A stretch of DNA of 64,000 nt, taken from the NCBI RefSeq assembly GCF_030384885.1, contig NZ_CP128613.1; one strand, given 5' to 3'. Position numbers and translations under genes: made by a program. The notes beneath the pieces are model-generated. The model had not been told where the DNA came from, did no database searches, and saw only the letters and a list, made by a program, of their open reading frames with translations. The first letter of the stretch is position 1. Every line of letters begins with the position of its first letter. This stretch comes from Escherichia coli. Its GTDB lineage: Bacteria; Pseudomonadota; Gammaproteobacteria; Enterobacterales; Enterobacteriaceae. Shown here in pieces: positions 53,814 through 58,190 of the stretch.

Positions 53814-54455
53814 ATGTTTACGGGGATTGTACAGGGCACCGCAAAACTGGTGTCGATTGACGAGAAACCAAATTTTCGCACGCATGTGGTGGAGTTACCC
53901 GACCACATGCTGGACGGTCTGGAAACCGGTGCGTCCGTGGCGCATAACGGTTGCTGCCTGACCGTGACGGAGATTAACGGCAACCATGTCAGTTTTGACC
54001 TGATGAAAGAAACGTTACGTATTACCAATCTTGGCGATTTAAACGTGGGGGATTGGGTAAATGTTGAGCGGGCGGCGAAATTTAGCGATGAAATTGGCGG
54101 ACACTTAATGTCAGGTCATATTATGACCACCGCTGAAGTGGCTAAAATATTAACCTCGGAAAATAATCGCCAGATCTGGTTTAAAGTCCAGGATAGTCAG
54201 CTGATGAAATATATCCTGTACAAAGGATTTATTGGCATCGACGGTATTAGCCTGACCGTCGGCGAAGTCACGCCAACGCGTTTTTGCGTCCATTTAATTC
54301 CGGAAACACTGGAACGCACGACTCTTGGGAAGAAAAAACTCGGCGCACGCGTCAATATTGAGATCGATCCACAAACTCAGGCAGTGGTAGATACGGTAGA
54401 ACGTGTGCTGGCGGCACGAGAAAATGCCATGAATCAACCAGGTACAGAAGCCTGA
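53814..54455 (+). CDS. ribC: Riboflavin synthase
   Basis: 213-aa [33 protein letters not shown]... with the internal duplication typical of riboflavin synthase; AGGAG SD. Confidence 0.95.
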
Positions 54456-54461
54456 TCTGAA

Positions 54462-54484
54462 ATCGCCCCCGGAGCGGGGGCGAT
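54462..54484. terminator. Bidirectional hairpin terminator between ribC and cfa
   Basis: atcgcccccg-gag-cgggggcgat between convergent stops. Confidence 0.7.
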
Positions 54485-54494
54485 AGAATAGCCT

Positions 54495-55643
54495 CTAGCG
54501 AGCGACTCGAAGGCCGTTTTCGACTCCGCGAGAGAACACCACCTGCCAGAGCTGAATATCACGGGCGCGGAAAGCACCTGCACAGGCATTCAGATAATAG
54601 GTAAACATCCGTTTAAAGCGTTCACTGTAGTTATCCGCAATTTCTGGCCATGCGGCGAGGAAACGTTCATACCACGCCATCAACGTAGTATCGTAATCAG
54701 CACCGAAGTTATGCCAGTCTTCCATCACAAAGTGGGGTTCGCTGGACTGAGCAATCTGGCGTACAGAGGGCAGGCAACCGTTCGGGAAAATATATTTATT
54801 AATCCAGGGATCAACATTCAGATCGGTTTTTTTCGAACCGATAGTATGGAGCAGGAATATACCTTCCGGTTTCAAATTACGATCCACCACCGCAAAATAG
54901 GTATCGTAATTTTTCGGTCCGACGTGCTCGAACATCCCCACAGAAACAATACGATCAAACTGGTCGTTCAGGTCACGATAATCTTGCAGCAAAATGGTGA
55001 CATCCAGGCCTTCACAGCGTTCCTGAGCCATTTTTTGCTGTTCAGCAGAAATGGTGACGCCCACCACGCTTACGTCATAGTTAGACGCCATGTAATGCGC
55101 CAGTCCGCCCCAACCACAGCCAATATCCAGTACGCGCATCCCTGGTTTTAACTGCAATTTTTCACAAATCATTTTGAGCTTCGCCTGCTGGGCAGATTCC
55201 AGATTATCGGCATCTTTCCAGTAAGCGCAGGAATATTGCATGAAGGGATCAAGCATGCGGCTGAACAAGTCATTACCCAAATCGTAATGCTCTTTGCCGA
55301 CTATCCAGGCACGTTTTTTACTCTGCAGATTGAAGAGACGAGCGCCGGCAATACGCAGCGTGTCTTTGAAATGATGGGGGAGTTGGTTCTCGAGACCTGC
55401 GCGTAAGACTTTGCTAAAAAACATATCCAGTCGGTCACATTCCCACCAGCCATCCATATAACTTTCGCCTAACCCCAAAGAGCCTTCCTGCAGAACGCGT
55501 TTAAAAAAATCGGGGTTTTTGACACGAATATCCGCCGGGGCAGAACCGTTAATGGCTATACCGGCACGGCTAAGTAATTCGTTGGCGATACGGTACCAGT
55601 TGTCATCCGGTACACTGACTTCTTCTATACACGATGAACTCAT
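54495..55643 (-). CDS. cfa: Cyclopropane-fatty-acyl-phospholipid synthase
   Basis: 382-aa ORF with SAM-methyltransferase motif (VLDIGCGWGG). Confidence 0.95.
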   Translation of the reverse strand: MSSSCIEEVSVPDDNWYRIANELLSRAGIAINGSAPADIRVKNPDFFKRVLQEGSLGLGESYMDGWWECDRLDMFFSKVLRAGLENQLPHHFKDTLRIAGARLFNLQSKKRAWIVGKEHYDLGNDLFSRMLDPFMQYSCAYWKDADNLESAQQAKLKMICEKLQLKPGMRVLDIGCGWGGLAHYMASNYDVSVVGVTISAEQQKMAQERCEGLDVTILLQDYRDLNDQFDRIVSVGMFEHVGPKNYDTYFAVVDRNLKPEGIFLLHTIGSKKTDLNVDPWINKYIFPNGCLPSVRQIAQSSEPHFVMEDWHNFGADYDTTLMAWYERFLAAWPEIADNYSERFKRMFTYYLNACAGAFRARDIQLWQVVFSRGVENGLRVAR

Positions 55644-55933
55644 AGTTTCTCCATCACTGGTCGGTGATCAGAACCTTAAAACAGCGTAGACGCTTTTTGG
55701 GCTTTGTGAGAAATATCGCAGAAAAATCCGCGAGTCTATAATCCGACGTAGAACAGAGGGAAAGGAGGAACCCTTGCCGAAATGACCATCCATAGTGAGT
55801 CGGGAACGATCCTGTCCCCGTAAAAACATAATATTTATCGTAGCTTTAACAACTCGAAATTAGTATAGGCCGCTAATTTCAATCATACAACAAAATTTTG
55901 TTAGCAGCCTAAGTATAAGCATATCGATATAGA

Positions 55934-57145
55934 TCAGTGTGATTCGCTATGAGCGACTTCGGCATTGCCATGATTCTGGCAGTCTACTTCTTCACAACGT
56001 TGCATCATGTAACCCAGAGCGACCAGCACTACTGTTGATAACATCACGCTGGTGGTGGTGAGCAATGGCGTGCTGATACTGATAAGCCAGGAAACTACCA
56101 GACTTGCGAGGAAGCACAGACCCAGTTGTAGAGTGTTCTGCAACGCTGCGGCGCGACCAGTTGCATGTGGGAAAGGACGCAGTGCCTGGGCGACAACAAT
56201 CGGGTAGATCGCGCCGTTGGCAATCGCCATCACACAGAATGGGATCAGGATTTCGGCCAGCGACACATGGCTAATGAAGCCCGCAGCCCAGGTCGCAATG
56301 ACGCTGACAGCAAACAGCACCAGCAACCACGGTAATAACTGCTTGCCTTGCCATTTTTGTAGTGCGGCGCGACAGCCATAGCCACCAATCAGAAACGCGA
56401 TAGTTTGCGGGACATAGCTTAAACCAATCACTGCCGGGCTGTAACCCATTTCGCTAAGGATGAACGGTGAACCGGTCAGCCATGCAAAAAAACTGGCTGA
56501 ACAGGCCGCGTATACCAGCACGTTGCCGCGATAGGTTTTAGAACGTAGCAGATCGGTAAAGGTCAGACCATCCTGACTATTGTTACGGGCCTTCGTCGTG
56601 GGTTTGAGCCAGAAAATAGGCAGAATCAGCACCACGGTAATGGCAAACAGGGTGGCGAATATCGCCTGCCAGGAAAAATGGACCAGCAGCCAGCTTCCTA
56701 ACAGAGGAGCCAGTGCCGGAGATAGACCCACCAGCGGCATGATGGTCGCAAAAATACGGTTAACTTTCTGTGAAGGATAATAATCTGTCACTAATGCTTG
56801 CCAGATAACCGCCGCGGCGCAGACACCTACAGCCTGTACAAAACGCAATACCAGCAGCGTGGCGGCGTTTTCAACCCACAGCATCCCCAGACTACCTAAC
56901 GCAAAAATTGTCAGGCCGATGAATAACACCGGTTTACGACCATAACGGTCGGAGAGCGGCCCCCACAGAAGCTGGGCTGCGGCAAATCCGGCAAGGAACA
57001 GACTAAGGCTGGCACTGACAGCAGACGCAGGCGTTTGCAGGTCGGCCTGTATGGCGGCGAAAGCAGGCAGATACATATCGGTTGCCAGAAAACCGAGTAC
57101 GCTCAAACCTGCCAGCCAGACTAAAAATCTTTTCCCAGGTTGCAT
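55934..57145 (-). CDS. ydhC: MFS transporter (Bcr/CflA-type)
   Basis: 403-aa hydrophobic ORF. Confidence 0.9.
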
Positions 57146-57257
57146 GTATATTCTCTAAATCTCTCAATTAAACACCGCCGCAAAGTGTAGGGAGTGAAAT
57201 TAGTGTTGTGAAACGGTAATATTTGATGACTGGTTTCAAAAATTTTGCAGGCAGACT

Positions 57258-58190
57258 ATGTGGTCAGAATATTCACTCGAAGTTGTTGATGCGGTAGCGC
57301 GTAATGGTAGTTTTAGCGCTGCAGCCCAGGAGTTGCATCGCGTTCCTTCTGCGGTCAGCTATACCGTGCGTCAGCTGGAAGAGTGGCTGGCGGTGCCTCT
57401 GTTTGAACGACGTCACCGTGATGTGGAACTGACCGCTGCCGGAGCGTGGTTTCTCAAAGAAGGGCGCTCTGTTGTCAAAAAAATGCAGATCACTCGGCAG
57501 CAATGTCAGCAGATAGCGAACGGCTGGCGCGGTCAGTTAGCTATCGCAGTGGATAATATTGTCAGGCCAGAACGTACACGGCAGATGATCGTTGATTTTT
57601 ATCGCCATTTTGATGATGTCGAACTTCTTGTCTTTCAGGAAGTGTTCAACGGTGTCTGGGATGCGCTTTCCGACGGGCGCGTGGAACTGGCGATTGGCGC
57701 AACACGCGCGATTCCGGTAGGCGGTCGTTATGCCTTCCGGGATATGGGGATGCTAAGCTGGAGTTGCGTTGTTGCCAGCCACCACCCGCTGGCGTTGATG
57801 GATGGCCCGTTCAGCGATGATACGTTGCGCAACTGGCCGTCATTGGTGCGCGAAGACACCTCGCGAACGCTACCTAAACGTATTACCTGGTTGCTGGATA
57901 ACCAAAAAAGACTTGTCGTGCCTGACTGGGAATCATCGGCAACCTGTATCTCGGCAGGATTATGCATAGGGATGGTGCCAACACATTTCGCCAAACCGTG
58001 GCTTAATGAGGGGACGTGGGTAGCATTAGAACTGGAAAACCCCTTTCCGGATTCGGCATGTTGTCTGACATGGCAGCAAAATGATATGTCGCCTGCGTTA
58101 ACCTGGTTGCTTGAGTATCTCGGCGATAGTGAGACGCTGAATAAGGAGTGGCTGCGGGAGCCGGAAGAGACTCCCGCAACGGGTGATTAA
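57258..58190 (+). CDS. punR: LysR-family transcriptional regulator
   Basis: 310-aa ORF with N-terminal LysR HTH; divergent from ydhC (punC). Confidence 0.9.

Follow-up and report, generated by a model that had tools for sequence, protein, structure and literature searches.

The punC-cfa spacer of an Escherichia coli strain as the known cfa control region, with strain-level differences from K-12

The window analyzed here, a stretch of 64,000 nucleotides of Escherichia coli DNA (contig NZ_CP128613.1), carries on its minus strand the gene cfa (54495-55643) and, upstream of it on the same strand, punC (old name ydhC; 55934-57145). The question raised by this locus is what occupies the DNA between the two genes and what it does for cfa. 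A previous reading of the window, which was based on its letters and open reading frames and is hereafter called the sequence-only reading, had placed cfa 290 nt away from ydhC on the minus strand, a value that proves exact: according to the ORF list the spacer is non-coding and runs from 55644 to 55933, directly downstream of the punC stop codon TGA (55934..55936, minus strand), and the RefSeq annotation of both strain 2013C-4282 and K-12 MG1655 gives the same two genes separated by the same 290-nt gap. The gene order purR-punR-punC-cfa-ribC-mdtK is also identical to that of K-12 in the RefSeq annotation. A 490-nt query across the spacer is 100% identical to strain 2013C-4282 and, out of a total of 5,426 complete E. 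coli genomes, finds matches in 5,424; one E. coli genome has the punC-cfa junction a second time, on a plasmid (one plasmid place, the maximum number of places per genome being two). The spacer had also been called AT-rich, which holds in that its GC content is 40.7% compared with 49.6% for the window, but only to a moderate degree, as the transcribed leader has 44.3% GC; most of the AT-richness is due to a segment of 78 nt, with 30.8% GC, that lies upstream of the distal start site.

The comparison with K-12 shows how closely the spacer matches a system already described, for the two sequences are identical at 286 of 290 positions (98.6%) in a gapless alignment and the differences from K-12 amount to four substitutions, at -277, -144, -84 and -72 with respect to the cfa start codon. 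The cfa region of E. coli K-12 and Salmonella (Wang & Cronan for the promoters; Froehlich 2013; Bianco 2019, PMC6755755; Farley 2025, PMC12691595) shares its neighboring genes and a spacer of 290 nt with the window, in which the sequences of P1 with its start site TSS1, the Hfq region, the CpxQ site, the stem-loop, the rut tract, the RydC/ArrS site, the RNase E site and P2 with its start site TSS2 are found at the same positions. Once coordinates are converted (a position -n from the ATG corresponds to 55643+n and a position +n from TSS1 to 55856-n), all published landmarks fall on the expected bases of the window. The tandem promoters proposed by the sequence-only reading, one of them RpoS-dependent, are indeed those reported for K-12, with their landmarks at the predicted coordinates. 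We thus hold it as almost certain that the spacer is the known cfa control region of E. coli, consisting of two promoters and a 212-nt leader regulated by sRNAs and Rho. Start sites, the dependence on Rho and RNase E and the proof by compensatory mutations are taken here from the literature, and coordinates, identity, predicted pairing and conservation were computed in this work; from the 98.6% identity we infer that an allele of the 2013C-4282 type would behave like that of K-12.

Published primer extension of cfa gives both a distal start, TSS1, with a 212-nt leader and a proximal start, TSS2, with a 34-nt leader (PMC6755755), not the short leader alone that would have spoken against the long 5' UTR claimed before. 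TSS1, at which the long isoform begins, maps to the G at 55855 on the minus strand, at -212 from the ATG (PMC6755755, PMC12691595), and the long 5' UTR defined by it covers 55644..55855 on the same strand, very nearly the range 55644-55860 that had been suggested for pairing with sRNAs. The distal sigma-70 promoter P1 occupies a conserved region at 55856..55912 (minus strand), in which the hexamers can be assigned from the published start site (PMC6755755) and the alignment described below: a putative -10 element, TATACT, at 55867-55862, which ends 7 nt before TSS1, and a putative -35 element, TTGTAT, at 55890-55885, separated from the former by a 17-bp spacer (both minus strand). The blocks GGCCTATACT and GCTAACAA of the P1 region are invariant in 12 of 12 aligned sequences, and K-12 has the same sequence over the whole stretch 55912-55788. 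A scan with the generic sigma-70 consensus retrieved no promoter match in the spacer region, P1 being missed because its -35 element is weak, with a match of 3/6.

The proximal, RpoS-dependent promoter P2 maps within the long leader, at 55677..55690 on the minus strand, its position following from the published start site (PMC6755755) and its hexamer being a putative assignment. The likely extended -10 element, TCTACGCT (55690-55683, minus strand), belongs to a block that is invariant in 12 of 12 sequences and fits the extended -10 preference of sigma-S. From TSS2, the A at 55677 (-34, minus strand; PMC6755755), the short leader of 34 nt extends over 55644..55677 and contains, in sequence and fold, a hairpin AUCAC-N6-GUGAU (55668-55653), followed by the Shine-Dalgarno motif GGAG (55652-55649), all on the minus strand. 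The sequence from -71 to -1 is identical to K-12 and nearly invariant across three genera.

Three symmetric elements are nested around P1. A perfect 14-bp palindrome, AACAAAATTTTGTT, lies over its -35 element (55902-55889), and an 8-bp inverted repeat, GAAATTAG/CTAATTTC (55880-55873 / 55863-55856), spans the -10 element up to the base before TSS1. A longer inverted repeat of 11 bp, TAGGCTGCTAA/TTAGCGGCCTA (55911-55901 / 55876-55866), has its arms on either side of the -35 element and extends into the -10 element. The latter repeat has a z score of -2.44 as RNA and could, from its position downstream of the punC stop codon, terminate punC transcription; this would suit an explanation of the spacer as a passive gap that holds no more than a terminator for punC and a short promoter for cfa, the long leader having no regulatory role. 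The fold of the whole leader, which is not unusually stable, would be in line with the same explanation. When examined as a conserved structure, the 11-bp repeat proved complete in Escherichia alone and showed no real covariation; it may represent a genus-specific terminator of punC or a site for binding a protein such as a repressor, in either case outside the conserved core of the region.

The conservation of the leader also speaks against a passive gap. We studied it by matching a degenerate pattern of the cfa N-terminus against genome contigs; this returned 12 loci, the 10 relevant ones representing species of Escherichia, Salmonella and Citrobacter, and the resulting alignment comprised 12 sequences from the three genera. 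The leader is 81-86% identical to its counterparts in Salmonella and Citrobacter, whereas identity at the third codon positions of cfa is only 53-58%; such an excess over largely synonymous sites provides clear evidence, on comparative grounds, that purifying selection acts on this non-coding sequence. Only over the 21 nt that follow the punC stop codon does conservation break down (29-57% identity), while the 34-nt short leader is 88-100% identical across the three genera. Invariant or nearly so in the 12 sequences are the -10 block of P1, the CpxQ site, the CU tract, the block containing the RydC, ArrS and RNase E sites, and the segment from about -70 to the ATG. Conservation of the region has also been reported for 10 Enterobacteriaceae (Farley 2025, PMC12691595).

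The same alignment bears on whether selection could act on a leader peptide, since the leader contains on the cfa strand an ATG-initiated ORF of 53 codons (55829..55668) that stops 24 nt short of the cfa start and the translation of which might control cfa by attenuation. Its ATG is replaced by AGG in the two Salmonella sequences, its downstream frame is not conserved in Citrobacter, the CU tract of several Escherichia species lacks 1 nt, which would shift the frame, and the conservation of the region has no codon periodicity; in addition, Rho-dependent termination within the leader implies an RNA that is not translated (PMC12691595). With neither start codon nor frame conserved, we consider it very improbable that the 53-aa upstream ORF is a gene or a leader peptide, and we attach next to no credence to an attenuator of this kind.

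We then examined the leader for RNA structure. The fold of the complete 212-nt leader is no more stable than that of shuffled sequences (z -0.44), a result that argues against an RNA structured over its whole length, for instance a riboswitch, and an Rfam scan at E<=10 gave no match inside 55644-55933; five Rfam matches occur elsewhere in 54000-57500, all far below gathering scores. The minimum free energy (MFE) fold of the leader does contain three local helices, described here from the 5' end and all on the minus strand. Downstream of the A/U-rich region that binds Hfq (-195..-161, mapped onto the sequence from PMC6755755 at 55838-55804), the first of these is the hairpin CGGGGAC-N6-GUUCCCG at +36..+55 (55801..55820), in which 98.8% of the cells of the 12-sequence alignment are paired with one-sided changes only; a published 3' end at +59 (PMC12691595), equivalent to 55797, lies just downstream of it. 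The second is the stem-loop of the CU tract, published as +78..+97 (55778-55759; PMC12691595) and extending over +78..+98 (55778-55758) in our MFE and local folds, which is 100% paired in the 12 sequences, six of its seven pairs never varying. Its 5' arm coincides with the CpxQ site and it sequesters the CU-rich tract UUCCUCCUUUCCCUCU, 16 nt at +86..+101 (55770-55755), which forms the core of the Rho utilization site (PMC12691595) and lies in a segment with a pyrimidine content of 65% across windows of +61..+120.

The third helix is a conserved hairpin at +123..+140 (55716..55733, minus strand), defined by folding and alignment and followed by UAUUUCUC. It has an energy of -10 kcal/mol, is more stable than shuffled sequences in E. 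coli as well as in Salmonella (z close to -2.5, the window value being -2.5) and was also flagged as terminator-like. Its position is the 3' margin of the stretch that Rho-dependent regulation requires, for which a boundary at +138 has been published (PMC12691595). Across all helices 98% of the cells are paired and the only compensatory pair of the 12 sequences is in this hairpin, covariation support being thin because the helices hardly vary. Terminator-like appearance, stability above shuffles, pairing retained through one compensatory change and coincidence with the +138 boundary could together suggest that the hairpin and its U-rich tail work as an intrinsic attenuator, or that the leader is a riboswitch-like RNA binding a metabolite or a protein, either beside the sRNA and Rho control or in its place. 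Yet the leader matches no Rfam family at E<=10, the hairpin has as its tail only UAUUUCUC here and GAUUUCUC in almost every other E. coli, which is ill suited to intrinsic termination, and published data credit termination to Rho; we therefore regard this possibility as improbable, albeit less so than the passive gap and the leader peptide.

Pairing of the leader with sRNAs was examined by prediction. Unrestricted RNAduplex was discarded for this purpose, as it returned unrealistically long full-length duplexes, and it was replaced by an accessibility-corrected, IntaRNA-like scan in which windows of 25 nt were hybridized with unpaired-probability penalties for both RNAs, dinucleotide-preserving shuffles of the leader serving as controls. 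The published sites of RydC, CpxQ, ArrS and GcvB were the top match for each sRNA, in the published order from upstream to downstream of GcvB, CpxQ, CU tract and RydC/ArrS. GcvB nt 154-171 pairs with +57..+74 (55799-55782) at -13.7 kcal/mol (0/24 shuffles as good, z -3.9), in agreement with its placement upstream of the CpxQ site in the literature (PMC12691595), and CpxQ nt 4-25 with +65..+86 (55791-55770) at -10.8 kcal/mol (0/100 shuffles, z -3.4), a stretch in which the CpxQ 5' end faces +78..+86 and whose validated core, +78..+85, includes G-135 at 55778. RydC nt 2-14 pairs with +104..+115 (55752-55741) at -14.4 kcal/mol (1/100 shuffles, z -3.3) and ArrS nt 1-11 with +108..+119 (55748-55737) at -7.5 kcal/mol (5/60 shuffles, z -1.5), so that for ArrS the energy alone is not better than in shuffled leaders, even though the site is experimentally validated. 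The RydC and ArrS sites overlap (55737..55752) and contain both G-101 (55744) and the RNase E cut GG/AUU between G-100 and A-99 (55743/55742), all on the minus strand. G-101 and G-135 are the positions of the compensatory genetics for RydC/ArrS (G101C) and CpxQ (G135C), which were published together with the mapping of RNase E cleavage (PMC6755755). OxyS gave weak and equivocal predictions, which were not the same for the window and K-12 alleles and did not agree with the 'far upstream' site of the literature.

These results sustain most of what had been anticipated for the leader. Targeting by RydC, ArrS and CpxQ matches the K-12 literature (PMC6755755, PMC12691595, PMC11340327), and the IntaRNA-type check recommended for these three sRNAs, when run, recovered the published sites as top matches; the potential pairing regions mentioned by the sequence-only reading go beyond chance for RydC, CpxQ and GcvB, but the energy of ArrS pairing is not significant. 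The notion of a passive gap is hardly tenable at this point, given that conservation of the leader greatly exceeds that of synonymous sites, that its sRNA sites outscore shuffles and that the published reporter and compensatory-mutation genetics, carried out on a nearly identical K-12 sequence, need the long leader (PMC6755755, PMC12691595).

The preferred reading, a known control region with two promoters and a regulated long leader, would operate as follows. P1, located ~57 bp after the end of punC, would function as a constitutive sigma-70 promoter and produce the transcript with the 212-nt leader, and P2, inside that leader, would depend on RpoS in stationary phase and produce the 34-nt leader that bypasses leader control, regulation being presumably confined to the long form. 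The long-leader mRNA would be prone to premature Rho-dependent termination through a rut site formed by the CU tract and the sequence down to about +138, with the stem-loop limiting access of Rho. By pairing with the 5' arm of the stem, CpxQ would expose the CU tract, increase termination and repress cfa, whereas RydC and ArrS, pairing just downstream of the tract and over the RNase E site, would block the loading of Rho and activate cfa; they would also mask RNase E cleavage, as a lesser contribution. GcvB would pair further upstream and repress mildly, OxyS would activate modestly, and Hfq would bind close to the leader's 5' end. The contribution of RNase E is indeed reported to be only minor (Farley 2025, PMC12691595), the published mechanism having moved from protection against RNase E to sRNAs that control premature termination by Rho (PMC12691595), and RydC is itself repressed by YieP (PMC11340327). 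The mechanism implied by the sequence-only reading therefore stands with respect to sRNA pairing, but mRNA stability is now thought to be secondary to Rho-dependent premature termination (PMC12691595).

What distinguishes the window from K-12 resides in the four substitutions, three of which are inside the long leader. The outer one, at 55920 (-277; G in the window, A in K-12), is upstream of the promoter. In K-12 the punC stop codon is directly followed by a perfect 12-bp palindrome, TATATCGATATA (55932-55921), and the G at 55920 alters the base directly after this palindrome, giving ...GATATG.

The substitution at 55787 (-144, +69 from TSS1) has G in the window and A in K-12, and the G is invariant in 10 other sequences of Escherichia, Salmonella and Citrobacter. 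The frequency of the two alleles was estimated from exact 57-mer counts in 5,426 E. coli genomes: the window 57-mer around -144 is present exactly in 2,566 genomes (at least 47%) and that of K-12 in 1,107 (20%). Judging from this distribution, G-144 is the ancestral base, lost in K-12, and the K-12 allele, used in all published experiments, is the atypical one. Position -144 lies between the GcvB and CpxQ sites. With G-144 a second block of predicted CpxQ pairing arises, GGAUGGU at +65..+71 opposite CpxQ nt 19-25, and the predicted duplex becomes bipartite, with -10.8 compared with -7.7 kcal/mol for the A of K-12. Predicted GcvB pairing is instead weaker with G-144, passing from -16.8 to -13.7 kcal/mol as an A-U pair becomes G-U.

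The other two leader substitutions, 55727 (-84; A in the window, T in K-12) and 55715 (-72; T in the window, G in K-12), are nearly private: among 5,426 genomes, two have the A at -84 and one, strain 2013C-4282, has the T at -72, the G at -72 being invariant in 11 of 11 other aligned sequences. Both affect the +123..+140 hairpin, in which the A at -84 adds an inner A-U pair and the T at -72 removes the outer C-G pair, so that CUCGCGG/CUGCGAG with a 6-nt loop shifts to UCGCGGA/UCUGCGA with a 4-nt loop at similar stability (-10.0 kcal/mol in the window vs -11.1). The tail of the window hairpin, UAUUUCUC, is more U-rich than the GAUUUCUC of nearly all other E. coli. One could speculate, tentatively and with more doubt than confidence, that repression of cfa by CpxQ may exceed the K-12 level in most natural E. 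coli and that the private substitutions may remodel the +123..+140 hairpin, which is beside the Rho-termination window and the region upstream of P2; this extrapolation derives from modeled pairing and folding.

The cfa leader is real and functional, but it is already known in detail and presents no new biology; its recognition shows that spacing alone can be enough to pick out a leader that is truly regulated. Only strain-level details are new, namely G-144 extending the predicted pairing of CpxQ and the two near-private substitutions of the hairpin. The leader of rpoS, with its sRNAs DsrA, ArcZ and RprA, is a known case of sRNA control of Rho-dependent termination in a long 5' UTR. The cfa leader resembles it in being a long untranslated leader vulnerable to Rho in which sRNA pairing near the rut region would change elongation, but differs from it in that its sRNAs would act both ways, CpxQ raising and RydC lowering termination, whereas those of rpoS only antagonize Rho. 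A modestly useful by-product of our analysis is that K-12 is atypical at the otherwise invariant position -144. For the organism, the cfa leader is a model of how stress-responsive sRNAs converge on one mRNA, that for membrane lipid cyclopropanation and acid resistance, and also a model for sRNAs that raise or lower Rho-dependent premature termination.
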